Shown one piece after another: positions 37,985 to 54,324 of a stretch of 64,000 nt of DNA. Positions within the stretch are counted from its first letter, which is position 1. Each line of letters opens with the position of its first letter. Source of the stretch: an uncultured Rickettsiales bacterium (GTDB taxonomy: Bacteria > Pseudomonadota > Alphaproteobacteria > Rickettsiales > JABDBP01). A model generated the notes under the pieces. The model had not been told where the DNA came from, searched no databases, and was given only the letters and a program-made list of their open reading frames with translations. The position numbers and the translations under genes are program-made. The DNA lies in contig CAYVHI010000002.1 in the NCBI GenBank assembly GCA_964450945.1, positions 904-64,903 of the forward strand, written 5' to 3'.

Positions 37985-38053
37985 GTTAATAAAATCTTAA
38001 TATTTGGGGGTTATATATATGATATAATTAAGTAAGTGGAATTAAGGAAAATT

Positions 38054-38395
38054 ATGGAAAAAAAGCTTATAAAAATATTGACTTTGGCGTTTGCCTTTAT
38101 GCTGGTTGGATGTAGCAATGACCCAAGATCTGCTTTTATTCCGTTTTCAGCTATTGGCCAGACATTTAGTCCAAAGCCGATGTACATGAGAGGGTTACCA
38201 GAAGGGGATGATAGTTACTCAGTAGGTTTCAGAGATGGGTGCGATACTTATCTTGGCATACAGGGGGTTGGTTTGATGCAGTTCAAAACATTTAAACAGG
38301 ATACATTGCGTACGATAAATGATCAGTATTATGCACAAGGTTATGAAGACGGAAGGAACCATTGCACATATATAATGCACCCTGCGGTAAACTAG
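38054..38395 (+). CDS. Small lipoprotein, paralog 1 of 5 (most divergent)
   Basis: Start at MEKKLIK with AAGGA SD. Lipobox LVGC. GFRDGCDT ... YYAQGYEDGRNHC. Confidence 0.7.
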   Translation: MEKKLIKILTLAFAFMLVGCSNDPRSAFIPFSAIGQTFSPKPMYMRGLPEGDDSYSVGFRDGCDTYLGIQGVGLMQFKTFKQDTLRTINDQYYAQGYEDGRNHCTYIMHPAVN

Positions 38396-38401
38396 GTATT
38401 T

Positions 38402-38743
38402 ATGGATAAAACTATGAAAAAAGTAATTACCATATTAAGTATAATTATCATGTCGCTCGGTTTTTCTGCGTGCAGCAGGGATAAGCTTGACCTCGCGCAC
38501 GGAGCCAATTTTAATGTTGATCCCCCACCTGGCCCGCCTGAGTATCAGAAAGGATGGAAAGATGGCTGTGAAACAGGCAGGGCAGCATATGCAAACCATT
38601 TTTATAAAATGTTCCTTGATTTCAGGCAGGATGAAGAATTAGCCCAGAACCCTATATATTATCAGGTATGGAAAGATGCTTACCTATATTGCTGGTTCCA
38701 AACGGAAACTGGATATAACCATGGTTGGGGCAACTTTAGGTAA
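38402..38743 (+). CDS. Small lipoprotein, paralog 2 of 5
   Basis: Lipobox FSAC. PPEYQKGWKDGCETG ... FRQDEELAQNPIYYQVWKDAYLYC. Confidence 0.72.
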   Translation: MDKTMKKVITILSIIIMSLGFSACSRDKLDLAHGANFNVDPPPGPPEYQKGWKDGCETGRAAYANHFYKMFLDFRQDEELAQNPIYYQVWKDAYLYCWFQTETGYNHGWGNFR

Positions 38744-38769
38744 ATTATGCTGAAAACTCTTTTTATTGG

Positions 38770-38862
38770 TAAATACTTTGTCGTTAACATTCTCGAATCC
38801 TCATGTACGTTATTGTACACTGCGGTTCTGCGAGTTTTAACTCCTAGTATTTTCCTAATAAG
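38770..38862. repeat. Hairpin repeat family copy F
   Basis: ..TTTGTCGTTAACATTCTCGAATCCTCATGTAC-gttatt-GTACACTGCGGTTCTGCGAG..ACTCCTAGTA. Lies between paralogs 2 and 3, inside the 5' extension of track ORF 38747. Confidence 0.6.
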
Positions 38863-38893
38863 AAGAGTTTTCAGCTATAATTTACTACTTACA

Positions 38894-39193
38894 ATGATTG
38901 CTGTTTTGCTCCTTTCCGCCTGCACCAGAGCGGGTGCGCCGTGGCAGGCATGGATGTATGAAGGGCCGCCAAAACAGGAAGGAGTTGAGTATCCGCCGCT
39001 TTATGTAGAGGGCTGGAAACATGGTTGTGAGACGGGTGTTGCCTCTACAACCAACCACTATTACAAATTTTTTTATGACTGGCGGCAAGATGCGCAGCTG
39101 GCACAAAATAAAGTTTACTACCAAGGTTGGCGGGATGCTTTCGACTATTGCAACCGCTATATGTTCCAATATTTGGCAAAACCTTTCTTTTAA
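38894..39193 (+). CDS. Small lipoprotein, paralog 3 of 5
   Basis: Start placed at MIAVLLLSAC (lipobox LSAC). YVEGWKHGCETG ... WRQDAQLAQNKVYYQGWRDAFDYC. The ORF stays open upstream to 38747 through the repeat, so the start is uncertain. Confidence 0.65.
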   Translation: MIAVLLLSACTRAGAPWQAWMYEGPPKQEGVEYPPLYVEGWKHGCETGVASTTNHYYKFFYDWRQDAQLAQNKVYYQGWRDAFDYCNRYMFQYLAKPFF

Positions 39194-39201
39194 GAGGATA
39201 T

Positions 39202-39678
39202 ATGAAAAACATAATTATAATATTTAGTTTGTTCATACTAGTAGCCTGTAACACTACAAAAGGTGGCACAGAAAGAACATTTGCCTTCCAGCCGATAACG
39301 TTGCCAAAATTACCGCAAGGCTCGCCTGAATATACACAAGGGTGGAGAGATGGTTGTGAAACCGGTATGTCCGTTTATGGTGACCCGACCTATAAAACAA
39401 TTTATAAATGGAAGCGTGACGAGGATCTTGCTGCATCAAACGTTACTTACTATAAAGCCTGGAAAGATTCATACAATGCTTGCCGCCACTACCTGCAAAG
39501 CTGGTCTTTAAATACCCAGCCAAGCAGCCCGTTCACGCCAATGGATAATCCATCTACTGATCCGCTTTTTGAATCAAAGGATATGAAAAGTGATTTCCTT
39601 GGAATACCAAACGGCGAGAATGCTTTTTCCGGCAGCGGTGACATTTTTTCACCAGAAGGAAACATAATGGGGTTCTAG
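39202..39678 (+). CDS. Small lipoprotein, paralog 4 of 5 (extended Ser/Pro-rich C-terminus)
   Basis: Start at MKNIIIIF with AAGAGGA SD. Lipobox LVAC. SPEYTQGWRDGCETG ... WKRDEDLAASNVTYYKAWKDSYNAC. Confidence 0.72.
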   Translation: MKNIIIIFSLFILVACNTTKGGTERTFAFQPITLPKLPQGSPEYTQGWRDGCETGMSVYGDPTYKTIYKWKRDEDLAASNVTYYKAWKDSYNACRHYLQSWSLNTQPSSPFTPMDNPSTDPLFESKDMKSDFLGIPNGENAFSGSGDIFSPEGNIMGF

Positions 39679-40092
39679 ATGAAAAGAATATTCATCAGTA
39701 TAGCAATTGTTCTTCTCCTTGCTTCATGCAAGCAATCAGGATTTCCGCCTATGTTCAGCCATGGACCGAAGGAAGGGGATGGCCCGCCGGAAATGGTACA
39801 GGGCTGGCAGGATGGCTGCCAGAGCGGTACACAGGCTTACGGCTGGGATATATATAAAACATTCTATCCTTTCAAGCAGGATGCAAGGCTTGTAAGCAAC
39901 AGGCTTTATATGACCTACTGGCGTGATGCTTATAATTATTGCCGCCATTACTTAAACGAATATGGCCGTTACGGTGTGCTTGGCCTTGAGCTTTTTGCGC
40001 AACCGACCGGTGATGGTAACATCCGTGATGAAAGAACTGCTACTGTGGGTAAGGGTGATAATGGTATTATGCCAGGCTTCATGGGTTGGTAG
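39679..40092 (+). CDS. Small lipoprotein, paralog 5 of 5
   Basis: Lipobox LASC. PPEMVQGWQDGCQSG ... FKQDARLVSNRLYMTYWRDAYNYC. The start abuts the stop of paralog 4. Confidence 0.72.
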   Translation: MKRIFISIAIVLLLASCKQSGFPPMFSHGPKEGDGPPEMVQGWQDGCQSGTQAYGWDIYKTFYPFKQDARLVSNRLYMTYWRDAYNYCRHYLNEYGRYGVLGLELFAQPTGDGNIRDERTATVGKGDNGIMPGFMGW

Positions 40093-41055: not shown

Positions 41056-41131
41056 GGGGAGTTAGCTCAGCGGTTAGAGCAGGGCGCTCATAACGCCTTG
41101 GCCGGGGGTTCAAATCCCTCACTCCCCACCA
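41056..41131 (+). tRNA. tRNA with CAT anticodon (elongator Met or lysidine-modified Ile2; not initiator)
   Basis: GGGGAGT acceptor pairs with ACTCCCC. D arm AGCTCAGCGGTTAGAGC, anticodon loop CTCATAA, T arm GGGGGTTCAAATCCCTC, encoded CCA. The G1-C72 pair argues against fMet. Confidence 0.9.
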
Positions 41132-41251: not shown

Positions 41252-42229
41252 ATGCCCAATCTTTCCGATAGAAATCTTGAAATAGCTTCTGAAAGTTCTG
41301 TTTTTTCGAGCGGGCAGAATGATGATCCTAAGGATTCTGGTAGCCAAAAATATTATGCTGCTGCTGAAGTTAAAGGAAACGTAGTGCCGTTAGTGGATGT
41401 AGATACTAGGGAAGTTGTCTATGTAAAAAGAGTAGATAGTAAAGAATTTGCGGCAACAAGTAAGGCTGCAAATTTACCTAAGGGAGATTATAAGCACGTT
41501 GTTTTACCTGAGATAAACGGAACACTTGAAGATTTGAAGCCTGATTTAAAAGACAGAGTAGAAAGCAAGCTAAAGCCTCATGAAGCAGGAGATCAGGGGG
41601 CAACAATTGTGGTTCCATCAGTTCCACAGAAAGGTGTTTATCTTGGTTTTAGTACAACTACGGGGATGTTCATGGAAGCGCTTGATGGGAAAAAAATTAG
41701 TGAGCAGGAACTAAGAGGAGTTGCTGATGATTTATATAGAATGAATGAGGCTGGGGTTTCTCATCGTGATTTGGTTAATAACTCTAGTTTTTCCAGGGAT
41801 GATAGCGGGCAATTGCGCATGCATGTTATAGATTTCGAGCCAGACACTTACGCGGCTGGAATGGAACAACATATAACTGATAAAGCCCACCCAGATGTGG
41901 AGGAGTTTAGTTCTGTAGTTGGTGGTCTGGTAGATGCAGGGGTAACCGATCTAAAACCGGAAGTAGCAGAATCTATGACAAAATTCTCAGTTCCAGATAT
42001 GATTTCGCCTGAACTAAAAGCGGAAATAACAAAAAAAGCTGAAGAAAGGTCAGAAACACCAGCTACTCCGGCCGATAATATGTCTCCTGAGGCATTGAAA
42101 GATTTAAGGGAAGCTGCGGCAGGTATGGCTTCAGCACAAGTAACAAGAGTTGATGAAGGTCAGCCGCCAGGCGGAAATAAAAACACCCCTCAGGTGGAAA
42201 AGGGGAATAAAGAACGTGGCCATGATTAA
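41252..42229 (+). CDS. Protein-kinase-like (minimal HRD/DFx core) protein with disordered termini; candidate secreted effector
   Basis: 325 aa. EVVYVKRV (beta3 Lys-like), GVSHRDLVNN (catalytic-loop-like), HVIDFE (DFG-like). The N- and C-terminal ~40-100 aa are polar, Pro/Glu/Lys-rich and low-complexity. Confidence 0.45.
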   Translation: MPNLSDRNLEIASESSVFSSGQNDDPKDSGSQKYYAAAEVKGNVVPLVDVDTREVVYVKRVDSKEFAATSKAANLPKGDYKHVVLPEINGTLEDLKPDLKDRVESKLKPHEAGDQGATIVVPSVPQKGVYLGFSTTTGMFMEALDGKKISEQELRGVADDLYRMNEAGVSHRDLVNNSSFSRDDSGQLRMHVIDFEPDTYAAGMEQHITDKAHPDVEEFSSVVGGLVDAGVTDLKPEVAESMTKFSVPDMISPELKAEITKKAEERSETPATPADNMSPEALKDLREAAAGMASAQVTRVDEGQPPGGNKNTPQVEKGNKERGHD

Positions 42230-42267: not shown

Positions 42268-43884
42268 ATGACCACCCTATTACCAACCCCTAAAATTATA
42301 TCAGAAATATTCCATAAGCTTGGCGGTGATGTTGCTGTGCTATCTGGCGGCGGGCAGCTTGGGGTACACTCTCCAATCAACGGAAAACTTATTGCATCTT
42401 TAAGGTTTGATACACAGATAACATTTCAGCAGAAGATAAATGAGGCAATAAGAGCCCAGAAAGAATGGAGCAAACTATCATTATCAGAACGCCAGGATTT
42501 TCTTATTCACCTGGCGAAAACTACAGAAGATTATAAGAAAGATCTGGCTCCATTTATAACTTATGAGGCGGGAAAAGTTTTAAAGGAATCAGAAGGTGAA
42601 GTGAGTAATATAAAAGGAACGATCGATACCACCATAAAAAATGTTACGGCAAGGAATAAGGAGGATAGCACAAGGGAGAAATGGAAACCCTTAGGAGTTA
42701 TTGGACTAATAACCTCATATAATTTTCCTCTCGCTGTTGCCGGCTGGACTATTGCACCAGCACTGCTTTCCGGTAACACGGTTTTATGGAAACCTTCAGA
42801 AAAAACACCCATTACTGCACTTGCATTTGAACTGATATTCAGGAAGGCAGTTAATAGTTATACCAAAGCAAAAGTACCTGAAGCACTTCTTACAGTGGTT
42901 CTCGGAAAAAGTGATATAGGGGAGCAAATGGTGGCAAACGAACACGTAAGCATGATAAGTGCTACCGGCAGTGTAGGGATGGGCAAAGGCATAAAGGCAG
43001 TTACTGCAAAAAAGAGTAAGGCATCTTATAAGCCGATCCTTGAACTTGGTGGGAATAATGCAGTCATCATCTCAAAAAACAATGATGATGCAGGCCTTGA
43101 ATTTGCTGCCTCTTCAATCCTTAAATCTGTATTTGCCACCGGTGGACAACGCTGCACAAATACCCGTAGAGTTATTGTACACCACGATGTATTTGGAAAA
43201 TTTTCTGCCATTATGAAAGATAAATTTCATTCGTTCATACAATCTGCAGCAATATGCAACCCGGTAGAGAGTAAAGATGATGTATATATGTATGCGCCAC
43301 TTATTGATAAACGCGCATATGAGGAATTTGTTTTTGCAAAAGTAGAAGCTGAAAAGGAAGGAGGAACAATCCATTTCGGCAAACGTATGCTGGAAAAAGA
43401 ATTTCCTGATGCATATTATGTGGCACCCGCACTTGCCCTGATGGCAAAACACTCTGATATTATGAAAAAAGAAACTTTTGCACCCATTCTTTTTGTCGCA
43501 CCATATGATGGCAATATTGAAGAAGCTGTAAAATTAGTAAACTTGCCTGAAAATGGTGGGCTGGTGAACGGAATTTATACAAAAGATGAAAGTGAGATAG
43601 CTGCATTTGTAGAAAATAATCTTGCAGGCCACACGGTAATAAATTCGCCGAAAGGCACGGGAACACCGGCGCACGGGCAGGGATTCGGCGGCAATCGTGA
43701 TTCAGGAGAGGGGGTGATTCTATCACCGGACCCACTGCTTTATTTTACTGAAGAAGGGCAGAAGAAAATAAATATATTAAAAACAGGAACAGAGCCGGCA
43801 GCCCAGCCAGATGGTGTTACTGCTTACAGAATGTGTCATAAAGATGGTTCTGTAAGCCGTATTATAATCCACCCTAAATCTTAA
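42268..43884 (+). CDS. NAD(P)-dependent aldehyde dehydrogenase (ALDH7-like) with C-terminal extension
   Basis: 538 aa. YNFPLAVAGW..LSGNTVLWKPSEKTP, ELGGNN (Glu), GGQRCTNTRR (Cys). Confidence 0.88.
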   Translation: MTTLLPTPKIISEIFHKLGGDVAVLSGGGQLGVHSPINGKLIASLRFDTQITFQQKINEAIRAQKEWSKLSLSERQDFLIHLAKTTEDYKKDLAPFITYEAGKVLKESEGEVSNIKGTIDTTIKNVTARNKEDSTREKWKPLGVIGLITSYNFPLAVAGWTIAPALLSGNTVLWKPSEKTPITALAFELIFRKAVNSYTKAKVPEALLTVVLGKSDIGEQMVANEHVSMISATGSVGMGKGIKAVTAKKSKASYKPILELGGNNAVIISKNNDDAGLEFAASSILKSVFATGGQRCTNTRRVIVHHDVFGKFSAIMKDKFHSFIQSAAICNPVESKDDVYMYAPLIDKRAYEEFVFAKVEAEKEGGTIHFGKRMLEKEFPDAYYVAPALALMAKHSDIMKKETFAPILFVAPYDGNIEEAVKLVNLPENGGLVNGIYTKDESEIAAFVENNLAGHTVINSPKGTGTPAHGQGFGGNRDSGEGVILSPDPLLYFTEEGQKKINILKTGTEPAAQPDGVTAYRMCHKDGSVSRIIIHPKS

Positions 43885-45175
43885 TTTTCAGGTTATCTTT
43901 CCTGCACGGAAAGCAGAATTTATTATTTAATTCCTTATAGTGCACTGGTAAAAGAACCACGGATTTATCGCGATAAAGTTCTGCCGGTTTTGCAAAAAAT
44001 ATTCCGGTAAAATTGCTTTTTGCCAGAAGCTTTGTTCCTGAAGGAATGCCGATTGCAATCTCTTGCCCTTCAGATATTTCTTCGATTTCTTCAAATTGGT
44101 ATACGGCGTACAAAGGATTTTCGCCTTTTAATTCTGATTTTTGTTTTACCTGATACCTGTCATCTTTTTCTATAACAACTTTATCTGCCGGGGTTTTATT
44201 TATTATTGGTTTTATTGTATAAAATAAATCTTCCTCTGGAGAGGATTTTCCAAGTCTGATTTCAAGATCAGAAAATTTTAATTTATCCTTAACATGATAA
44301 AGATCAAATACCCCTGTTTCATTTTGTTCGGGTTTTATGGAGGAAATCCCGAGGTTGAAGAAAAGAGATAAAGTGAAGGAAGAAGCCACCTTGAATGAGT
44401 TTATATCTTCGTGCCTTCCGGCTTCAATACCAGTGTTGCTCTCAATGTTTTTCTGGCTGCTGAAAAGCAGTTTCAGAGGTTTTGTTGAAGTGTGGCTGGC
44501 AATACTATCAAGCAGACCTTTAAGTACGGTACGGATTGGTGAGTATAATAAATCTCTTTCGTTGCTGTATGTTGTTATGCAGGTGAGGTTCCCCCTGGCG
44601 GAGTGAATATCAAGAATTCCTGAAATATTTTTTGATAAATAATATAAATCCTGAGCTCTTTTTGTATGATGGTCGCTGGCTGGATCAAGCTCAAGGAAGT
44701 TTGCCGGCACACGATTAAGATCTTTCTGCATGTTTCCTTTTTCATCAACCCCGGTGCGGAAATCATCCCGCACTTCCTGCTGTGCAGAAGGATTCTTCTC
44801 CCAGGCTGAGAAATATTGGCCAGCGGCAAAAGGATTTCCTATGGCAAGATATACAGAACGTTTCAGAAAACCCGCTTCGCCAAGCGCAAGAGTAAATAGA
44901 ACTGCGGCAAGCCCTGCTGGCTCATTTCCATGCACTTGTGTAAGCAGCAGGAAAGGCAGTTTATCTGAAGATTTTACTTCGGACAAATAGGCTGCAGGAA
45001 TTGTTTTTCCTTCAACTTTTATAGTTTGCCGGGTTAGCCAGTCATGCGTGATTTTAAGTTCTTTTAGGGACAACCTGCGGCTGAAAAATACATCGATAAA
45101 TGTATGAGCGTCTGTTATGGAGGAAAAATCCACATTCCATATTTTTTTAAGCAGGTTTCTTGCTCCTTCACTCAT
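43874..45175 (-). CDS. Succinylglutamate desuccinylase/aspartoacylase family Zn hydrolase (long form)
   Basis: 433 aa. VHGNEPAG, ILDIHSARG and GIEAGRHE motifs of the AstE/AspA family. About 100 aa longer than typical AstE. Confidence 0.72.
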   Translation of the reverse strand: MSEGARNLLKKIWNVDFSSITDAHTFIDVFFSRRLSLKELKITHDWLTRQTIKVEGKTIPAAYLSEVKSSDKLPFLLLTQVHGNEPAGLAAVLFTLALGEAGFLKRSVYLAIGNPFAAGQYFSAWEKNPSAQQEVRDDFRTGVDEKGNMQKDLNRVPANFLELDPASDHHTKRAQDLYYLSKNISGILDIHSARGNLTCITTYSNERDLLYSPIRTVLKGLLDSIASHTSTKPLKLLFSSQKNIESNTGIEAGRHEDINSFKVASSFTLSLFFNLGISSIKPEQNETGVFDLYHVKDKLKFSDLEIRLGKSSPEEDLFYTIKPIINKTPADKVVIEKDDRYQVKQKSELKGENPLYAVYQFEEIEEISEGQEIAIGIPSGTKLLAKSNFTGIFFAKPAELYRDKSVVLLPVHYKELNNKFCFPCRKDNLKIKI

Positions 45176-46059
45176 TCTTCCACTCTCCCAACGCTTAAAT
45201 GCCGCATTTCCGGTGTAAGTAAGGGAGCCTCAGTTTTTGAAAGAGGCGTGGTTATAGTGCGAACATCAAAATGCCCATCAAGCGAAAATGCAGAAAGCAG
45301 AACCATTTCCTGATTATCTTTTTTTATTATAACTCCTCTCAGCGCCCCTTGGGATTTTGCCTTTTCCGTAACACGCAGATTGTTTGCTATTTTAAGGGTT
45401 TTTTCATCTTCAAGACTATATACATTCTTATCAATCAATTTGAACGGTGTTTTAGCTAGCAGCTCCTTTGTTTCCTTGTTATGAGGAATCAGCATAGTGC
45501 TCATTTTATGGAACTGCTTCATCCCCGCTTCCATAGCGGCCTTATGGAAATTTCCTATATTTTTTGATACCGCTTCACTAACAAGAAGATCAATATTTCT
45601 CTCTTTTGCCAGTTTGAAACTTTCTCGGTACATATATGGCAGGAAACTTTCTCCTGTCCTATCTTTTCCCCGGATATCCTTATGAAAACATAAAGAGCCG
45701 AATTCGGCGCATTTCATTTTCTTAATAGGAAGGTGTGAGAGCATTACATGAAGAGGAATGGGGATTGTATCCTCAGTCTTCAAATGTTTTAGTTTGTTTT
45801 TAGAGCTAGGGTCCTGCACCAGCATGCGCCGCCCGCCGAGCAGTATATTGTTAGGGCCATAAATAAGGATATATTCTGTTTGCGGGTGAAGATCATATTT
45901 CTCAGGCTCATACCCGGAATAGAAATTTTTACCCTCTCCGGTAAAGATATCATACCGGATTTTCCAAAATAATTGCAGTTGTATATTATTAGGGTCACTT
46001 TTTAGATGAACTAATCTCAGTTCATCATTATGATATTTTCTTTGAGAGGGGTATTTCAT
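45172..46059 (-). CDS. GNAT-related N-acyltransferase of FeeM/OlsB/autoinducer-synthase-like type (not AstA-like)
   Basis: 295 aa. LFWKIRYDIFTGE...EPEKYDLHPQTEYILIY..ILLGGRRML...CAEFGSLCFHKDIRGK fits the N-acyl amino acid synthase pattern. The AstA IDIFDGGPT motif is absent. Confidence 0.45.
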   Translation of the reverse strand: MKYPSQRKYHNDELRLVHLKSDPNNIQLQLFWKIRYDIFTGEGKNFYSGYEPEKYDLHPQTEYILIYGPNNILLGGRRMLVQDPSSKNKLKHLKTEDTIPIPLHVMLSHLPIKKMKCAEFGSLCFHKDIRGKDRTGESFLPYMYRESFKLAKERNIDLLVSEAVSKNIGNFHKAAMEAGMKQFHKMSTMLIPHNKETKELLAKTPFKLIDKNVYSLEDEKTLKIANNLRVTEKAKSQGALRGVIIKKDNQEMVLLSAFSLDGHFDVRTITTPLSKTEAPLLTPEMRHLSVGRVEE

Positions 46060-46083
46060 GAAATATTATTATGAAATGAAAGC

Positions 46084-47433
46084 ATGCAGAAATCAAATTA
46101 TAAAGAGATAGTATTTATAGGCCTGCCCGGGCCATCGCATAATTATGGCGGTCTTGCGCCAGGTGACCTTGCTTCCGAAAAGCATGCCGGAAATATTTCG
46201 CAACCCACCGAAGCAGCCCTTCAGGTAATTAAACTGGCGGAAGTACTCCATGAAAAGGGGGTGACAGTTGCGATACTTCCACCCCACCCGAGGCCATACC
46301 TCCAGGTTGCTGAGAAAATTGGCTATCAGGGAAGCCATAAAGATATTATAAAACTTCTTGCTGCTGAAAATCCAAAACTGCTTAGCATGCTTTATTCCAG
46401 CGCCAGCATGTGGGCTGCCAATTCTGCCACTGTAACACCTGCAGCCGACGCAAAAGATAAAAAACTCCACATAATGCCGGCAAACCTTATATCAAACCTG
46501 CACCGCTCAATAGAAGCGGAACATAGCTATAAAATTTTTTCTCAGATACTTGCTGATAAAAATACTGTCGTACATGAGCCGCTTCCAAATCATGTGGTGT
46601 TTGGTGATGAAGGAGCGGCCAACCATATGCGTATGGCTGCCGCGCACGGGGAAAAGGGCCTTAATATATTTGTATTTGGAAAGGAGGCGACAGTTCCTGG
46701 TTCACCAGCGCCAAAACTATACCCAGCGCGGCAAACAAAGGAAGCAAGTGAAGCTATAGCCAGACTGCACAATATACCAGAAAGCCAGACAGTTTTTATA
46801 AAACAGAACCCGGAAGTAATTGACCAGGGAGTGTTCCATAATGATGTAATTGCTCTCAGCCACCTTAATCTTTTGCTTTATCATGAACATGCATTCTCTG
46901 ATAAAGACAGTGTTATTTATGAAATCACATCGAAGTTTAAAAGCACAACAGGCAATATTCCGGTGTTTATAGAAGTGATGGAAGGAGAGCTTTCTGTAGG
47001 TGATGCTGTACATAGCTATTTCTTCAACAGCCAGATTATTTCAGATAAAGACGGCAATATGATTTTTATCGCGCCTCAGGAAGTAAAGGAAAATAATAAG
47101 GCAAAGAAACTTATAGATAAAATTATTGCCGATAAAACAAACCCTATATCTTCAGCAATCTATGTGGATTTAAAGCAGAGTATGCAAAATGGCGGTGGAC
47201 CTGCCTGCCTGCGCTTACGGGCGGTGCTTTCTGATGAACAGATAAAACATATGGAAGAGAAAACGAACATCATTTTTAATTATGTTCTCGCTGAAAAATT
47301 AAGGAAGTCGATAAAAAAATATTACCCTGAAATGCTGGAGCCAAAACAGCTTGCCAGCCCGGATCTTTACAGAGATGCCATGAAGGCATTAGAAGATATA
47401 GAAAAAATCCTTAACTTGCAGGTTTCAAAGTAG
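46084..47433 (+). CDS. astB: N-succinylarginine dihydrolase
   Basis: 449 aa. GLPGPSHNYGGLAPGDLAS at the N-terminus, and C-terminal NGGGPACLRLR (catalytic Cys) as in AstB. Confidence 0.85.
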   Translation: MQKSNYKEIVFIGLPGPSHNYGGLAPGDLASEKHAGNISQPTEAALQVIKLAEVLHEKGVTVAILPPHPRPYLQVAEKIGYQGSHKDIIKLLAAENPKLLSMLYSSASMWAANSATVTPAADAKDKKLHIMPANLISNLHRSIEAEHSYKIFSQILADKNTVVHEPLPNHVVFGDEGAANHMRMAAAHGEKGLNIFVFGKEATVPGSPAPKLYPARQTKEASEAIARLHNIPESQTVFIKQNPEVIDQGVFHNDVIALSHLNLLLYHEHAFSDKDSVIYEITSKFKSTTGNIPVFIEVMEGELSVGDAVHSYFFNSQIISDKDGNMIFIAPQEVKENNKAKKLIDKIIADKTNPISSAIYVDLKQSMQNGGGPACLRLRAVLSDEQIKHMEEKTNIIFNYVLAEKLRKSIKKYYPEMLEPKQLASPDLYRDAMKALEDIEKILNLQVSK

Positions 47434-48658
47434 CAAAAACCTGATTAAGTATTTTTATTCCCTTGTTGATAAGTGGCTTTGTTGTATTGAGTGGTGGAAG
47501 AATACGTATAACATTGCCACCAGCCCTTTGAGTTGAAAGGCCATTCTCCTTAAGCAGGTTGGAAATTTCTTCAGGATTGAAATTACTTTTAAGTTTGAGA
47601 CCAAGGAAAAACCCTCTGCCACGAACTTCTTCTACTATATGTTTGTTTTTCTTCGCAACTTTTTCCAACTTCTCAAAAAGGATCTTTTCATTTTCCATTG
47701 AAGATCTCTGAAACTCAGAATCCTGGATTATTTTAAGCGTCTCAATAACCGCGACCATGGCAGGCGGCATGCCGGAGAATGTAGCTCCATCATTATATAG
47801 CTGGGCCTCATTTGCTGTAGTTACTGAGCGGATCTTTTCACTGAATAAGGTTGCGCCAACCGGTTCAACCCCGCCGCCAAGTGCCTTAGCGAGCGATAAC
47901 ATATCCGGCTTTATGCCATATAACTGGTGTGCAAAAAGCCTGCCTCCGCCAGCGCGCATCATGCCGGACTGCACCTCATCACAGCCAAGGACTATACCGT
48001 GCTTATCAGCAATCTTCCTAAGTGCTGGCAGGAATTCAGGAGATGGTACAGAAATACCGCTTTCACCCTGTATAGGTTCAACTATAATTCCGGCTACACT
48101 GCTGTTTGCAGCATTCTCCACAGCTTCAATATTATTAAAAGGAAGGCGGATGAACAGTGGCTCCAGCACAGATTTCCATGCCTGTATGCTTTCATATTTT
48201 CCGGTTGCCGCACACTCCATGACCGACCTGCCGTGGAACGCGCCTTCAAATACTATAATCTTGCTGCGCTGCTGACCCAGCATTTCATGATATGCTGTAA
48301 AACCTTTGAGCATTATTTCGTTAGCCTTCATACCATCAAGAGAAAAAATCACGCCGCCTTTGGGATCGAATGTATCAAGGAGCAGGCGCCCTGCTTGAAG
48401 ATGTTCAGCGGTTTCATAAGTAAGAGAAGAGTGGGATTTTCTTTTCTTTTCGCTTATAACAGGTTTCACGATTGCAGGGAAGCAGCTGCCGAACGGTTCA
48501 CAAGCAATGCCGGTGGACCAGTTTAGAATCTTTAACTCTTTCCCCTGTTTATTTTTGGCATATAGGTAGAACCCCTTACCGCTAATTAATTCAAATTGTG
48601 GGTTTGCCAAAGGCATTAATGGACGGTCTTTCGCATTTTTATTGGGTGTAGCAGCCAT
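47411..48658 (-). CDS. Class III aminotransferase (succinylornithine/acetylornithine aminotransferase-like, divergent)
   Basis: 415 aa. FHGRS, DEVQSGMMRAG, SLAKALGGG (PLP Lys). Its 3' end overlaps the astB 3' end by 23 nt (convergent). Confidence 0.85.
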   Translation of the reverse strand: MAATPNKNAKDRPLMPLANPQFELISGKGFYLYAKNKQGKELKILNWSTGIACEPFGSCFPAIVKPVISEKKRKSHSSLTYETAEHLQAGRLLLDTFDPKGGVIFSLDGMKANEIMLKGFTAYHEMLGQQRSKIIVFEGAFHGRSVMECAATGKYESIQAWKSVLEPLFIRLPFNNIEAVENAANSSVAGIIVEPIQGESGISVPSPEFLPALRKIADKHGIVLGCDEVQSGMMRAGGGRLFAHQLYGIKPDMLSLAKALGGGVEPVGATLFSEKIRSVTTANEAQLYNDGATFSGMPPAMVAVIETLKIIQDSEFQRSSMENEKILFEKLEKVAKKNKHIVEEVRGRGFFLGLKLKSNFNPEEISNLLKENGLSTQRAGGNVIRILPPLNTTKPLINKGIKILNQVFATLKPAS

Positions 48659-49200: not shown

Positions 49201-49692
49201 TTAGATTTCAAATAATGCTTCCACTTCTACGGCGACACCTCGCGGCAACTGAGCTACCCCAACAGCAGCACGGGCATGCTTGCCTTTATCGCCAAAAATT
49301 TGAACGATCAAATCGGAGGCGCCATTTGCAACGAGAGGAGCATCGGTAAATTCTGGTGTTGCATTAACAAATACGCCAAGACGAACACAGCGTTTTATTT
49401 TATCTAAGTTACCACCGCAGGCAACCCTTGCATGAGCCAACACATTAAGTGCGCAAACCTTTGCTGCTTCCTGACCTTGTTTTACATCAAAATCTTTACC
49501 CAATTTTCCTATAAATTTAACCTCCCCATTCCAAGCGGTTATTTGCCCAGAAACTACAAGCTGATTACCTGTTATTACATAAGGAACATAATTGGCGGCA
49601 GGTGTTGCTGCTTCCGGCAGCGTTATATTTAACTCTTTCAAACGGGCATCTATTGAGGATGCCTGGTCGTTTGCAAATGACTTTTTCAGCAT
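49201..49692 (-). CDS. RidA/YjgF family protein
   Basis: 163 aa. LVVSGQ near the N-terminus and C-terminal VAVEVEALFEI are typical of YjgF-like proteins. Confidence 0.8.
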   Translation of the reverse strand: MLKKSFANDQASSIDARLKELNITLPEAATPAANYVPYVITGNQLVVSGQITAWNGEVKFIGKLGKDFDVKQGQEAAKVCALNVLAHARVACGGNLDKIKRCVRLGVFVNATPEFTDAPLVANGASDLIVQIFGDKGKHARAAVGVAQLPRGVAVEVEALFEI

Positions 49693-50015: not shown

Positions 50016-50345
50016 ATGTTAAGCAATAAACTAGAAACTAATCTTTCCTTACTTTGGAAAGGTACGACAATAGCGCTCATAGCTGCTGTTTTTGTATTAA
50101 TACCAGAAATGGCTTACGCAATAGCTGATTTTGATACTAAACTTTGCGACGTACAAAACGCAATTCTTGGTACACCAGCTAAAGTTATAGCTACCCTTGC
50201 CATCATATTCTTAGGCATCGGTGCATTCTTTGGTAAATTAAACTGGGGTACTGCATTACTTTTTGCAGCAGGTATTATAGCCGTATTTGCTTCTGTAAAA
50301 GTAGTAGAATTCCTTGATAGCAGCGGTGTTGCTAGTACATGTTAG
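50016..50345 (+). CDS. virB2: VirB2/TrbC-type T4SS pilin
   Basis: 109 aa. Long leader ending AYA, then LCDVQNAILGTPAKVIATLAIIFLGIGAFFGK..WGTALLFAAGIIAVFAS. This two-helix pilin layout parallels Agrobacterium VirB2. AGGAG SD. Confidence 0.7.
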   Translation: MLSNKLETNLSLLWKGTTIALIAAVFVLIPEMAYAIADFDTKLCDVQNAILGTPAKVIATLAIIFLGIGAFFGKLNWGTALLFAAGIIAVFASVKVVEFLDSSGVASTC

Positions 50346-50395
50346 AGTAAAACTATTTAACATGATGAAAAAAGGAATGCTATTAAAAAATAGTA

Positions 50396-52804
50396 ATGAT
50401 GACAAAAACTAATGATGCGAAAAGGGATGGAGTCAGGGTTGATATAAATATTTCTGATTTCATCCCTTTTGCATGTCATTATAACCCTCACACAATACTC
50501 ACAAAGAACGGCGAATTACTACAGACTATAAAAATAGTTGGATTCGCTGCCGAAAATATAAGCAATAAAAAAGAAGATAATAAAAAACGGACCTTAAGAG
50601 GCTCGGTAAGGAAAGCTATTCAGACAGGCATTGATAATGATGAATATGCTATATGGTTTCATACCGTAAGAAGGAAAAAGAAACTTTCTGCCGAAGGCGA
50701 ATACAGCGACCAGTTCTCAAAATATACCAATAGTGCCTGGCGCAAAAGGCATGACTGGGATCATAAATATGTTAACGAGCTTTATATAACTATAATAAGG
50801 GAAGGAGAGTCATTTTCTTTCGAAAGTTATGCCGACTATATAAAAACTTCATCTTATAAGGTGCAAAAAAAGGCAAAGAACCTCTTTCTTGAAAAGATAT
50901 ACGATGAACTTGATGAGGTTGTAAAAAAAGTAGTTCAGTCACTTTCAGATTTTGGTGCAAAACGTCTTTCCATGTTTGAATATAAAGGAGTTTTTTATTC
51001 AGAAAACTTAAGGTTTCTAAGTAAAATCATCAACTTTGCTGAATATAATTTTCCGGTTAAGGAGCAGGATTTATCTCACTATCTTCCTATAAACAAAGTT
51101 TCTTTTGGTTTTAATGCCCTGGAAGTAAAAGGTGCCAATGAAAAACATTTTGCTGGTATATTATCAGTAAAGGAATACCACGAAGTATCGGCAAATGCCA
51201 TAGACACATTCTTGCAGTTGCCGTTTGAATTTATCCTGACAGAAACAGTGGATTTCATTAACAGGGAAAAGGCCTTAAAAGGATTTGAGTATCAAAAGTA
51301 TATTTTAAATCTAAGCCAGGATAAGCATTTTTCTGAAATATCTGGGATAACTGAAATAATAAATAGCGATAAAGGAAGAGTTACGGATTTTGGTGAGCAC
51401 CAGATAAGTATAATGGTTATTGAAGACCATTTGAAATTACTGGAATCAGAAATCAATAAAATGCAGGAAGTTTTAGCCACGTTAGGTATACTTTCGGTAA
51501 GGGAAGATATTATGATGGAAGATTGTTTCTGGGCACAGCTTCCGGGCAACTTCTCATTCATAAGGAGGCTGACACCTATAAATACCAACAGGATGGGTGG
51601 CTTTGCCTCACTTTATAATTTTCCTGCCGGTAAACTTACCAACAACCACTGGGGTCCGGCAGTCACAATTTTTTATACCGCAGCCGGAACGCCTTATTTC
51701 TTCAATTTCCATGTAGATGATAATGGGCATACGGCGATAATCGGACCATTCGGCGCCGGAAAAACGGTGCTAATGAATTTCATGCTCTCAGAAGCAAGAA
51801 AATATAATAGCAAGCTTTTCTTTTTTGACCAGATGCGTGCTTCGGAAATTTTTATCCGCGCTATTGGCGGCAAATATGTTTCTTTTGAAGAAACTAAAAA
51901 TAAGTATTTGCCAATTCCAAAAATGAATCCTCTGTTGCTTGCTGAGAATGAGGAAAATATAAAATTCCTGAAAGCCTGGCTGCAATATCTTGTTTCCAGC
52001 TCTGATAACGGGAATGAAGATGAAACAATAAAAGAAAGGCTGGTGGAAATTGTTAAAATAATATTTGCTCTACCCGCACAGGAGAGGAAACTTTCACAAG
52101 TCAGGGACCTTTTTGAAAAGATGGATATGGCAAAACAGGCGGCGGCTCTTGAGGTCTGGTATGGTTCCGGCAGATATTCATACCTGTTTGATAATGATGA
52201 TGACGACTTGAATATTGCCCATATCCAGGGTTTTGATATGACGTTTTTGGTAAAGGAAGGAAAGCCTCTTGGCCCTGTGCTATCTTATTTATTCCATAGA
52301 ATAAGGGAAAAGCTGGATGGTGAACCAACAATAATAGTACTGGATGAAGCATGGTCACTTATTGATAATGCAATCTTTGCCCCGCACATTTCCGAGTGGC
52401 TTGATTTTTTCCGGGAAAGAAATGCTATGGTTATTTTTGCAACAGAAAGCGTTGAAGATGCAAGTAAAAGCAAAATCACAACTTCAATAACCAGCAAGCT
52501 GGCAACAAGGATATTCCTACCCAATCAGTATGCCACTGGCGCTTATAAAAAGGTTTTCGGCCTTAACCATGTAGAATTTGATCTCCTTAACATGATGAGT
52601 AAGAAGCGCCGCAGCTTCCTCTTAAAGCATGGTGAGGATGCCGTGGTTGCCGAACTTGATCTTAGCGGACTTGATGAAATAATATCTATATTGTCTGGTA
52701 CGCCGGAAAACATTAAGATAATGGAAGGGATTATGAATGAAGTTGGTGAAACCGTTGATAAATGGTTACCTGCCTTTATATTCAAGAAAAAAGCAAAAAA
52801 ATGA
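50396..52804 (+). CDS. virB4: T4SS ATPase VirB4
   Basis: 802 aa. N-terminal SDFIPFACHYNPHTILTKNGELLQT, Walker A GPFGAGKT, Walker B IIVLDEAW. Confidence 0.93.
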   Translation: MMTKTNDAKRDGVRVDINISDFIPFACHYNPHTILTKNGELLQTIKIVGFAAENISNKKEDNKKRTLRGSVRKAIQTGIDNDEYAIWFHTVRRKKKLSAEGEYSDQFSKYTNSAWRKRHDWDHKYVNELYITIIREGESFSFESYADYIKTSSYKVQKKAKNLFLEKIYDELDEVVKKVVQSLSDFGAKRLSMFEYKGVFYSENLRFLSKIINFAEYNFPVKEQDLSHYLPINKVSFGFNALEVKGANEKHFAGILSVKEYHEVSANAIDTFLQLPFEFILTETVDFINREKALKGFEYQKYILNLSQDKHFSEISGITEIINSDKGRVTDFGEHQISIMVIEDHLKLLESEINKMQEVLATLGILSVREDIMMEDCFWAQLPGNFSFIRRLTPINTNRMGGFASLYNFPAGKLTNNHWGPAVTIFYTAAGTPYFFNFHVDDNGHTAIIGPFGAGKTVLMNFMLSEARKYNSKLFFFDQMRASEIFIRAIGGKYVSFEETKNKYLPIPKMNPLLLAENEENIKFLKAWLQYLVSSSDNGNEDETIKERLVEIVKIIFALPAQERKLSQVRDLFEKMDMAKQAAALEVWYGSGRYSYLFDNDDDDLNIAHIQGFDMTFLVKEGKPLGPVLSYLFHRIREKLDGEPTIIVLDEAWSLIDNAIFAPHISEWLDFFRERNAMVIFATESVEDASKSKITTSITSKLATRIFLPNQYATGAYKKVFGLNHVEFDLLNMMSKKRRSFLLKHGEDAVVAELDLSGLDEIISILSGTPENIKIMEGIMNEVGETVDKWLPAFIFKKKAKK

Positions 52805-54324
52805 AAAACCGCAGCGTAAAATTACTTATTCTTTTTCTGGCACTTGCCTGCCCTGCGATAGTTTATGCTGCCTGCACGTTCCCTATTTCACTTAATGACT
52901 GTGCTTTTAGTTTTGTTGACCCGGCAACAGGGGAAACAAAATACCAGATCTTGTTTTCAATACTCTGCCGTGTTCAGTATGCCCTTGGTGGCGCTGTTTT
53001 CCAGATGTATCAGGCGATAGAAACCAGGGTTGCCACGCCGGTCAAGGTTTTCGGTACGCTATATATCATATTTTTTTCCGGTGCTTATTTAATGGGACTT
53101 ATTAAGCAGGAAGCAAAGCTGAGCCAATTCGTAATACACATTGTGAAGCTGACCCTGGTTATGATGTTTGCCACCAACCACTGCTTCTTCTTTGATTATA
53201 TTTACACATTGTTCATGGGCGGCATGAATGCTATAGCCCTTATGGCCTTCAGCGGGCTTCCAGGTACACCGCCTGTACTGGGTGCCGGTTCAAGCCCTGC
53301 GGAAATAATCGCCAGGAGCCAGATAATAGGAAATATTGACGTTGCCTTTAATAGCATTATCAGCATACAGAGCATATTCGCCATTATCGTGCTGATTATT
53401 TTCTTCCTTTTAAGCCCCGGCGGCATAATAATTTCTGTCCTACTTTCAGCCGGCACCATTTATATATTCTATGCCTTTGTGAAGCTGTTCATAACTTTTG
53501 CCATCGCCATCATCAGCCTTACATTTGCGATGATTTTCACCCCGGTTTTCATGATATTTGTTCTATTCGAGCAGACGAGGGATCTTTTCTACAACTGGCT
53601 TTCCCTGCTTTTCACTTATGCCATGCAGCCGATAATCATCCTTTTCTACCTTGTTCTCATGGGCCAGATAATGGATATAAGTTTCATACTTAAGGGGCTT
53701 ACCTGCCCAAGCGCCGCAGACGCTGCTGCTACGGATGCCTGCCTGGCAGCCTTCAGGGCGGATGCCTGTGTTGGCACGCCGGTAGTTCCTGACCCTAACG
53801 CCATAATAGTGCCTTACTGCTGGAAAGTGCTTCCGACATTCATTACATTCTTCCAATGGTCATTCTTTCAAATCAAGCCGGGGATGACCTTTGATACACC
53901 GGTTACTTTCGTTATACCAGGCAACCCGCCACAGAATGTGAACATGCCGGCTTTCGCCGCTATTACCGCGCTTTGTTTCTGCTGGCTGGTGGCCGCATTC
54001 ACCGCCATAGAATTCTGCAAGATAGTGCCTGAACTGGCGCAGCGCCTTGGTACTACGCAGGCCCTTCTGAAACCACCAGGTATTGGCAATATCAGTCCAG
54101 GTGTTAATCCAAAAACTGGTGAGTTTGATAGACTTTCTATCGAAGGTGGTAACGTTATTGTTCCGGGATTTACTGCTGGGTATGCCTCAACAACAAGCGT
54201 CAATCAGTGGCGGGATGCACTTTTAAGTAAATTGGGTGGCGCGTGGCCAAAAATTATAAAAGCAACGGATAGTGGTGCGGCCCGCAAAGGAGTAAGCGAC
54301 ATGATGGACAAGCTGAAGAAATAA
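52801..54324 (+). CDS. virB6: T4SS inner-membrane protein VirB6/TrbL family
   Basis: Start at MKNRSVK (ATGA overlap with the virB4 stop). Signal-like N-terminus and multiple TMs with a central Trp-containing region. The position after virB4 matches Rickettsiales rvh loci. Confidence 0.8.
   Translation: MKNRSVKLLILFLALACPAIVYAACTFPISLNDCAFSFVDPATGETKYQILFSILCRVQYALGGAVFQMYQAIETRVATPVKVFGTLYIIFFSGAYLMGLIKQEAKLSQFVIHIVKLTLVMMFATNHCFFFDYIYTLFMGGMNAIALMAFSGLPGTPPVLGAGSSPAEIIARSQIIGNIDVAFNSIISIQSIFAIIVLIIFFLLSPGGIIISVLLSAGTIYIFYAFVKLFITFAIAIISLTFAMIFTPVFMIFVLFEQTRDLFYNWLSLLFTYAMQPIIILFYLVLMGQIMDISFILKGLTCPSAADAAATDACLAAFRADACVGTPVVPDPNAIIVPYCWKVLPTFITFFQWSFFQIKPGMTFDTPVTFVIPGNPPQNVNMPAFAAITALCFCWLVAAFTAIEFCKIVPELAQRLGTTQALLKPPGIGNISPGVNPKTGEFDRLSIEGGNVIVPGFTAGYASTTSVNQWRDALLSKLGGAWPKIIKATDSGAARKGVSDMMDKLKK

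Follow-up and report, generated by a model that had tools for sequence, protein, structure and literature searches.

A probable arginine catabolic module of the AST type with a FeeM/LuxI-like GNAT acyltransferase in the position of AstA in an uncultured Rickettsiales bacterium

A 64,000-nucleotide stretch of DNA from an uncultured Rickettsiales bacterium (GenBank assembly GCA_964450945.1, contig CAYVHI010000002.1, positions 904 to 64,903; hereafter the window) carries five adjoining genes related to the arginine succinyltransferase (AST) pathway. They encode an aldehyde dehydrogenase (ALDH), a hydrolase distantly related to AstE, an acyltransferase of the GNAT superfamily, an AstB-family dihydrolase, and a class-III aminotransferase (Table 1). 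An initial annotation of this DNA had recognized in AstB, an AstC-like aminotransferase, an AstE-family hydrolase, and an ALDH four of the chemistries of the AST pathway, and homologs for all four are present. The analysis described here concerns all five genes, and above all the one for a 295-aa protein that may supply the acylation step performed elsewhere by AstA.

Table 1. Genes and central intergenic region of the AST-like cluster, with positions in the window and the roles proposed for the products
Feature	Position	Strand	Length	Proposed role
ALDH	42268-43884	+	538 aa	N-acyl-glutamate-semialdehyde dehydrogenase (AstD-equivalent step)
AstE-like zinc hydrolase	43874-45175	-	433 aa	N-acyl-glutamate deacylase (AstE-equivalent step)
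FeeM/LuxI-like GNAT acyltransferase	45172-46059	-	295 aa	Arginine (or ornithine) N2-acyltransferase (AstA role)
Intergenic region separating the divergent GNAT and AstB starts	46060-46083	.	24 bp	
AstB-family N-acyl(succinyl)arginine dihydrolase	46084-47433	+	449 aa	
Class-III aminotransferase, acetylornithine/succinylornithine family	47411-48658	-	415 aa	N-acyl-ornithine 5-aminotransferase (AstC-equivalent step)

The cluster comprises four units that alternate in orientation, and its convergent gene ends overlap. The five open reading frames (ORFs), the motifs quoted for them in the initial annotation, and two convergent 3' overlaps were all recovered where that annotation had placed them; the overlaps measure 11 nt between the ALDH and AstE-like genes (43874-43884) and 23 nt between the AstB and aminotransferase genes (47411-47433). 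A further overlap of 4 nt (45172-45175) joins the stop of the GNAT gene to the start of the AstE-like gene, and suggests that translation of the second may be coupled to that of the first. The GNAT gene has a GC content of 0.40, the same as its surroundings, which rules it out as a compositionally foreign insertion. Between the divergent GNAT and AstB genes, the intergenic region holds a direct repeat, ATGAAAT-N6-ATGAAAT, and promoter-like hexamers of each gene fall within the 5' end of the other. The number of promoter-like sites around this region was not above chance, and promoter and terminator scans did not exceed shuffled expectation. Overlapping divergent control signals are probably located here.

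The AstB protein matches PF04996 with 518 bits (E = 1.9e-155; cutoff 27) and passes the cutoff of NF009789 (PRK13281) with 513 bits against 452. On the equivalog model TIGR03241 it obtains 459 bits, under the cutoff of 538, and equivalog status is not reached. Identity to E. coli AstB is 39.6%, and the GGGPACLRLR motif is present. Positions aligned to Glu174, His248, and Cys365 of the E. coli enzyme are kept in the window protein, in its counterpart at locus L070, and in three homologs from metagenome-assembled genomes (MAGs); these residues reportedly form the Cys-His-Glu catalytic triad of the E. coli enzyme (Tocilj et al., 2005). The predicted product is a genuine member of the AstB family.

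The aminotransferase matches Pfam Aminotran_3 (E = 1.4e-73), contains the DEVQSG and LAKALGGG motifs, and shares 31% identity with E. coli AstC. All NCBIfam scores lie under their cutoffs, and they are higher for the acetylornithine models (283 bits against a cutoff of 372 for PRK01278, acetylornithine transaminase; 261 against 410 for argD) than for astC (200 against 610). ArgD and AstC are known to substitute for one another, so that such scores do not discriminate the acyl group. The ALDH matches Pfam Aldedh over residues 30-495 of its 538 (E = 4.6e-91), and the catalytic motifs ELGGNN and GGQRCT, with the catalytic Glu and Cys, are present. Its best NCBIfam model is pip_6_carb_DH, which describes the ALDH7-like piperideine-6-carboxylate (P6C) dehydrogenase, at 328 bits against a cutoff of 730. 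The AstD models return 183-205 bits, under their cutoffs (TIGR03240, 183 against 579), and identity to E. coli AstD is 26.5%. The predicted dehydrogenase is a general ALDH, ALDH7/P6C dehydrogenase-like rather than AstD-like, in agreement with the initial annotation. That annotation had also noted a tail of about 40 aa, which was measured at 43 aa past the Pfam domain and is not conserved in the closest ortholog.

Placement of the 433-aa hydrolase depends largely on structure prediction. Its match to AstE_AspA_cat, in a test for the AstE/aspartoacylase family (PF24827/PF04952), is not significant (E = 0.031; 14.2 bits against a cutoff of 25), there is no NCBIfam match or PDB sequence match, and a phmmer search with E. 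coli AstE is likewise not significant (E = 3.7). The translation contains the HGNEPAG and DIHS motifs, and an hhalign comparison, low in power because it involves a single sequence, aligns its HGNE, GNP, and DMNR (DxNR) motifs to E. coli AstE. An AlphaFold (AF2) model built on 44 sequences reached a predicted local distance difference test (pLDDT) value of 94.8. This model has the AstE/aspartoacylase (ASPA) fold, with an HxxE...H zinc site and a downstream catalytic Glu. The top Foldseek matches in the PDB are the AstE structures 2bco, 1yw6, 2g9d, and 1yw4, together with EutE/DoeB and CphZ; matches to AstE/ASPA-family structures have a probability of 1.00 and E values of 4e-10 to 1e-7. Residues H82, E85, H191, E251, H255, and E256 are invariant across the 44 aligned family sequences. 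The model indicates that the protein is a deeply divergent zinc hydrolase of the AstE/aspartoacylase superfamily.

The initial annotation had estimated this protein to be some 100 aa longer than usual, and it exceeds E. coli AstE (322 aa) by 111 aa. A second catalytic domain hidden in the additional residues was considered and rejected, as in the model they form a helical bundle at the N-terminus together with insertions. The family comprises at least 184 homologs, counted as clusters, of about 405-445 aa, with identities of ~40-46% among the matches listed. No Pfam domain is recorded for any of these homologs, and all source names read "hypothetical protein"; those that are named derive from Alphaproteobacteria or Rickettsiales MAGs.

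The proposal that the 295-aa protein is not AstA was borne out. The protein has no PF04958 match at E ≤ 10, and hhalign of its family profile against E. coli AstA gave a negligible probability of 4.8%, again in a single-sequence comparison of low power. Neither tblastn nor phmmer --max found an AstA homolog in the 64-kb window, and no E. coli-like AstA lies within 10 kb at more than 50 related loci. The protein also has no Pfam, NCBIfam, or PDB match of its own, and none that is meaningful even at E ≤ 10. A word-indexed search of 5.8 billion proteins returned the protein itself and nothing else, and the family profile obtained three matches there. Exhaustive HMMER searching of 1.84 billion representatives recovered 20 distant relatives (E values of 1e-21 to 2e-5; 24-44% identity), which align only to residues ~14-200 of the window protein.

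These relatives connect the 295-aa protein to known acyltransferases. Among the 21 family members, PF00583 (Acetyltransf_1) is matched by 12, PF21926 (FeeM) by 10 (best E = 1.8e-7), and PF13444 (Acetyltransf_5) by seven (best E = 1.1e-7). None matches AstA (PF04958); a comparison of PF04958 with PF13444 had been suggested in the initial annotation. An NCBIfam exosortase acyltransferase model gives weak matches to four members (best E = 0.018). Compared with the PDB, the family profile places the LuxI-type synthases BjaI, MesI, and RpaI on top, followed by ElaA and other GNATs, and the top eight matches are all GNAT proteins. The AF2 model of the window protein has a core pLDDT of ~85-95, with low confidence at residues 134-136, and its best 50 Foldseek matches in the PDB are all GNATs (E values of 8e-5 to 2e-3). 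FeeM (2g0b) superimposes with a target-normalized template modeling (TM) score of 0.59-0.62 and a root-mean-square deviation (rmsd) of 3.7-4.2 Å. Within these 50 matches, none surpasses FeeM on query-normalized TM score or rmsd, and RpaI (6wn0) equals FeeM on that TM score.

By profile and predicted structure, the family belongs to the GNAT superfamily, whose fold is a mixed beta-sheet with a beta-bulge and an alpha3-alpha4 CoA site, and lies nearest to its FeeM/OlsB/LuxI branch; the assignment of the window protein is transitive and structural. The FeeM/OlsB/LuxI-type identity originally proposed is upheld in this sense by the family's Pfam matches, the profile, and Foldseek, whereas the window protein alone stays under every Pfam threshold. 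The motifs RYDIF, GGRRML, and EFGSL named in support of it are present in the translation. The family also has motifs of its own, namely GGRRxxxHxP, MLPHL, AELG, the RGxG loop, and a DGDxDFR...LPLLS tail. For motif A, the pyrophosphate-binding loop of GNATs (R/Q-x-x-G-x-G/A), the family consensus is xRGxGxxxxxY; the corresponding sequence of the window protein is IRGKDRTGESFLPYMY, which includes five inserted residues, and the model is of low confidence at 134-136.

The C-terminal tail motif conserved in the family is DGDxDFR..SFK..LPLLS.E.K.KGIGK, and residues 259-295 are the corresponding region of the window protein. This region is predicted to be disordered in the window GNAT and forms the linker in the fusions of GNAT and AstE-like proteins described below. 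The tail may act as a docking peptide.

Conserved synteny and gene fusions show that the GNAT belongs with the AST-like genes. A search for the same neighborhood in other genomes, as proposed with the initial annotation, found that the five-gene cluster recurs at L070/L071. The genes there stand in the order aminotransferase, AstB, GNAT, AstE-like, and ALDH, with AstB and ALDH opposed in direction to the other three, and order, orientation, and overlapping convergent ends are as in the window. Identities between window and L070/L071 proteins are 54% for the aminotransferase, 43% for AstB, 34% for the GNAT, 43% for the AstE-like hydrolase, and 52% for the ALDH. An operon variant occurs at L067, where an Rrf2 gene faces away from co-directional aminotransferase, GNAT, and AstE-like genes whose coding ends abut or overlap.

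Fusions extend this picture. At L012 and L068, the GNAT and the AstE-like hydrolase are single polypeptides of 602 and 623 aa, and in L012 an aminotransferase gene lies directly upstream of the fusion. At L013 and L072, a fusion of aminotransferase and GNAT (857 and 772 aa) is followed by a fusion of AstE-like hydrolase and ALDH (~1025 aa). AST-type partners are found in seven of nine distinct GNAT contexts, in four of them by physical fusion, and the fusions join four of the five components (GNAT, aminotransferase, AstE-like hydrolase, and ALDH). A metagenome scan with GNAT alignments found no further relative. The five genes are a conserved unit and not a mosaic of unrelated neighborhoods. 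Of the "mosaic" described initially, the layout stands, being unlike astCADBE and divided into four alternating units; a mosaic of unrelated parts is contradicted by the same five-gene order at L070/L071.

The hydrolase family was also traced through 41 alphaproteobacterial or Rickettsiales MAG loci. At about 38 of these, AstB is the direct divergent neighbor of the AstE-like gene, with starts 8-40 bp apart, and this adjacency ties the hydrolase family to AstB chemistry. ALDH orthologs lie convergent and downstream of the AstE-like gene at about 21 of the 41 and also in L071 (ALDH identities of 43-52%). A further scan using AstE-like sequences added two loci, both GNAT-less. In a crude neighbor-joining tree, the GNAT-associated hydrolases, including that of the window, fall outside one large GNAT-less clade, and this suggests that the GNAT-linked arrangement may be the older or deeper one.

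Some of these loci carry additional genes. In a GNAT-less subclade (L005, L014, L019, L022, L030, L040, and L042), a 495-aa multi-pass membrane protein, sometimes duplicated, is encoded in the position of the ALDH. Its gene in L005 (9217-10704) has a convergent overlap of 11 nt with the AstE-like gene, as the ALDH gene does in the window. A degenerate ALDH was ruled out as an explanation for the L005 gene, given that its product is a multi-pass membrane protein. In L006, L007, and L008, a short-chain dehydrogenase (adh_short) gene is oriented convergently to AstB, and LOG/lysine-decarboxylase-like genes are close by; L005 has an adh_short gene ~3 kb away on the same strand. In L053 (8308-11536) and also L052, a very distant 520-aa relative of the AstE-like hydrolase (28-30% identity) directly follows ArgJ, of the ornithine acetyltransferase family, and a NUDIX gene. 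This neighborhood may point to a connection with the chemistry of N-acetyl-glutamate or N-acetyl-ornithine.

Our preferred interpretation, to which we assign a probability of roughly 0.6, is an AST-type module from arginine to glutamate whose first step is carried out by a FeeM-like GNAT as a non-orthologous replacement of AstA. In such a module, the GNAT would acylate the alpha-amino group of arginine, or possibly of ornithine, with acyl-coenzyme A (acyl-CoA) as the donor; the latter is inferred from the RGxG loop of the family and its Acetyltransf_1 matches. AstB would hydrolyze the guanidino group of the resulting N2-acyl-arginine, giving N2-acyl-ornithine, CO2, and 2 NH3. The aminotransferase would convert N2-acyl-ornithine to N-acyl-glutamate semialdehyde, which the ALDH would oxidize to N-acyl-glutamate. 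Finally, the AstE-like zinc hydrolase would release glutamate and the free acid. Where GNAT, aminotransferase, hydrolase, and ALDH occur with no AstB nearby (L013 and L072), the same route could start from ornithine or another diamino acid, and AstB would then act as a module through which arginine enters. The sequence data show gene content, the fold and family of each protein, the lack of AstA in the window, cluster conservation, and the domain fusions; substrates and step order are inferred. Since AstB is well conserved, succinyl would be favored as the default acyl group.

The predicted route shares with the AST pathway (astCADBE in E. coli and aruCFGDBE in Pseudomonas aeruginosa) N2-acylation, guanidino dihydrolysis, omega-transamination, aldehyde oxidation, and deacylation. 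The likeness extends to a clear AstB homolog, an aminotransferase of the ArgD/AstC family, and a deacylase of the AstE/ASPA fold. The window cluster differs by having a FeeM-like single-domain GNAT in place of AstA (PF04958), a deacylase that is 111 aa longer and missed by the AstE hidden Markov models (HMMs), and an ALDH7-like ALDH. Moreover, the AST genes form one co-directional operon, whereas those of the window are split into four alternating units. Literature searches found no description of this AST variant.

Other systems offer partial parallels. The window GNAT shares with FeeM (PF21926), OlsB (PF13444), and LuxI the fold and the N-terminal LRxxVF...D...GGxR motif region seen in the family profile. 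Enzymes of the FeeM/OlsB/LuxI type transfer an acyl group to the alpha-amino nitrogen of an amino acid. The partners of the GNAT are here catabolic enzymes and not lipid or signal genes, and the donor is probably acyl-CoA rather than an acyl-acyl carrier protein (acyl-ACP). Ectoine degradation employs the same trio of families on an N-acylated diamino acid, namely DoeB/EutE, the class-III aminotransferase DoeD, and the ALDH DoeC. Unlike that system, the window cluster is without an ectoine hydrolase and includes an acyltransferase and AstB, the latter pointing to arginine. The cyanophycin-dipeptide (beta-Asp-Arg) hydrolase CphZ is an AstE-superfamily enzyme that acts on an N2-acylated arginine-type substrate and is a structural neighbor of the 433-aa protein. 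Identity in the structural alignment amounts to ~10-13%, however, and the window provides a context of GNAT, aminotransferase, and ALDH, with no cyanophycin genes seen.

Several observations weigh against the replacement of AstA by the GNAT. The window GNAT is the most divergent member of its family, with Gln82 where His is near-invariant, five extra residues in the RGxG loop, and another ~70 inserted ahead of the last strands, and it reaches no Pfam threshold by itself. Relatives of the FeeM/LuxI type usually work with acyl-ACP and long acyl chains, which would be ill-suited to a catabolic protecting group. The GNAT homologs of L010/L011 and L069 stand alone, and none of the 41 AstE-like MAG loci has a GNAT or an aminotransferase within 10 kb. 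These GNAT-less relatives carry AstB and often ALDH, so that another acyltransferase, possibly AstA, must serve there; they also leave room for a canonical astA elsewhere in this genome. An ALDH7-like ALDH and an aminotransferase leaning toward acetylornithine also allow for an acyl group, or even a substrate, other than that of the classical pathway. A related alternative retains the architecture but assigns it an acyl group other than succinyl (e.g., acetyl, malonyl, or glutaryl), which would make it a third acyl-protected arginine route with co-evolved enzymes. We consider this conceivable but rather unlikely. Acetylornithine transaminase models give the aminotransferase its best score (283 bits, as opposed to 200 for astC), the ALDH is not AstD-like, and AstB remains under the TIGR03241 cutoff (459 against 538). 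In addition, the hydrolase is too far from AstE for any HMM, its structural neighbors include the N-acetyl-diaminobutyrate (DABA) deacetylase EutE/DoeB, and a very distant relative adjoins ArgJ, with its acetyl-ornithine/glutamate chemistry. Conversely, AstB is conserved over its full length relative to the E. coli enzyme and passes the PRK13281 cutoff, and the aminotransferase scores carry no information on the acyl group given that ArgD and AstC are interchangeable.

It is improbable that the GNAT is an accessory enzyme, which would acetylate or detoxify an intermediate, modify an enzyme, or act on ornithine only, while a canonical AstA encoded elsewhere acylates arginine. Such a role would accommodate the roughly 40 related loci without an adjacent GNAT, the absence of the near-invariant His82 from the window GNAT, and an AstA negative that covers 64 kb of the genome. 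At L012, L013, L067, L068, and L072, moreover, the GNAT occurs with aminotransferase, AstE-like hydrolase, or ALDH and no AstB nearby, which indicates that the core partnership does not depend on arginine. Nevertheless, independent lineages encode fusions of the GNAT with the aminotransferase and with the AstE-like hydrolase, and in the window the GNAT appears translationally coupled to the hydrolase. Without an acyltransferase, the aminotransferase, ALDH, and deacylase would have no acylated substrate, and AstA is missing within 10 kb from every one of the more than 50 related loci. Still less credible is a FeeM/OlsB-like lipoamino acid synthase that makes long-chain N-acyl-arginine or N-acyl-ornithine, with neighbors that remodel or degrade lipids or signals. 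The closest recognizable families are FeeM, Acetyltransf_5 (OlsB-type), and LuxI-type synthases, but the partners are soluble enzymes of amino-acid catabolism with precisely the AST arrangement. Where gene tables were read, no gene for an acyl carrier protein or for lipid handling lies next to these genes, and the RGxG loop and Acetyltransf_1 similarity of the family are typical of CoA-dependent GNATs. Chance juxtaposition of unrelated genes without a common function might be read from the alternating gene orientation and from the three of five proteins that fall under curated family cutoffs. It is contradicted by identical five-gene synteny at 34-54% identity, by four independent fusion proteins, and by the adjacency of AstB and AstE-like genes at ~38 of 41 loci, and can practically be dismissed.

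Beyond the replacement of AstA within an otherwise AST-type module, a bolder and tentative idea is that the cluster represents a previously unrecognized acyl-protected arginine/ornithine route, built on the FeeM-like GNAT and the ~440-aa AstE-superfamily hydrolase, the latter being widespread among Rickettsiales-like bacteria. This route might employ a non-succinyl acyl group, or might recycle the acyl group between deacylase and acyltransferase, two enzymes that some lineages encode as a fusion. The GNAT-less core of AstB, hydrolase, and ALDH could in that case use an N-acylated arginine compound from the host or the environment.

The surroundings of the cluster contain further genes. Directly upstream of the ALDH gene, a 325-aa protein is encoded at 41252-42229, with a weak Kdo/WaaP-kinase-like match (E = 0.006), and is itself preceded by a tRNA-Met gene (41056-41131). 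Two genes from the aminotransferase lies a RidA/YjgF-family gene (49201-49692), which is not part of the L070 cluster; its product could quench reactive enamine or imine by-products. Type IV secretion genes of the TrbC/VirB2-like, VirB4/TrbE-like, and TrbL/VirB6-like types follow at 50016-54324. A TrbC gene also adjoins AstB in the Rickettsiales MAG locus L005, and this proximity suggests a shared neighborhood ancestry of the window and L005. On the other side of the cluster, 38036-40092 holds a tandem array of four to five ORFs (113-183 aa) that share the motif GW(K/R/Q)DGC(E/Q)(T/S)G ... YY..W(K/R)DAY..C; the N-termini of several are lipoprotein-like. The four ORFs scanned have no Pfam match; a further one, at 38747-39193, overlaps the next ORF.

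For the annotation of these bacteria, the cluster offers candidate functions for two families, the AstE-like hydrolases (at least 184 clusters) and the GNATs (~20 representatives). Neither the GNAT family nor the ~440-aa hydrolase family is covered by Pfam or NCBIfam, and the named members are recorded as "hypothetical protein". Pathway-reconstruction tools would score the route as incomplete on account of "missing" AstA and AstE. The GNAT is also a candidate new amino-acid N-acyltransferase for biocatalysis. In evolutionary terms, the committing first step of a textbook pathway would have been displaced non-orthologously, a case that is backed by fusion proteins. Rickettsiales-type bacteria are mostly uncultured and probably host-associated alphaproteobacteria. 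The finding suggests that arginine may serve them as a source of nitrogen, carbon, or energy.

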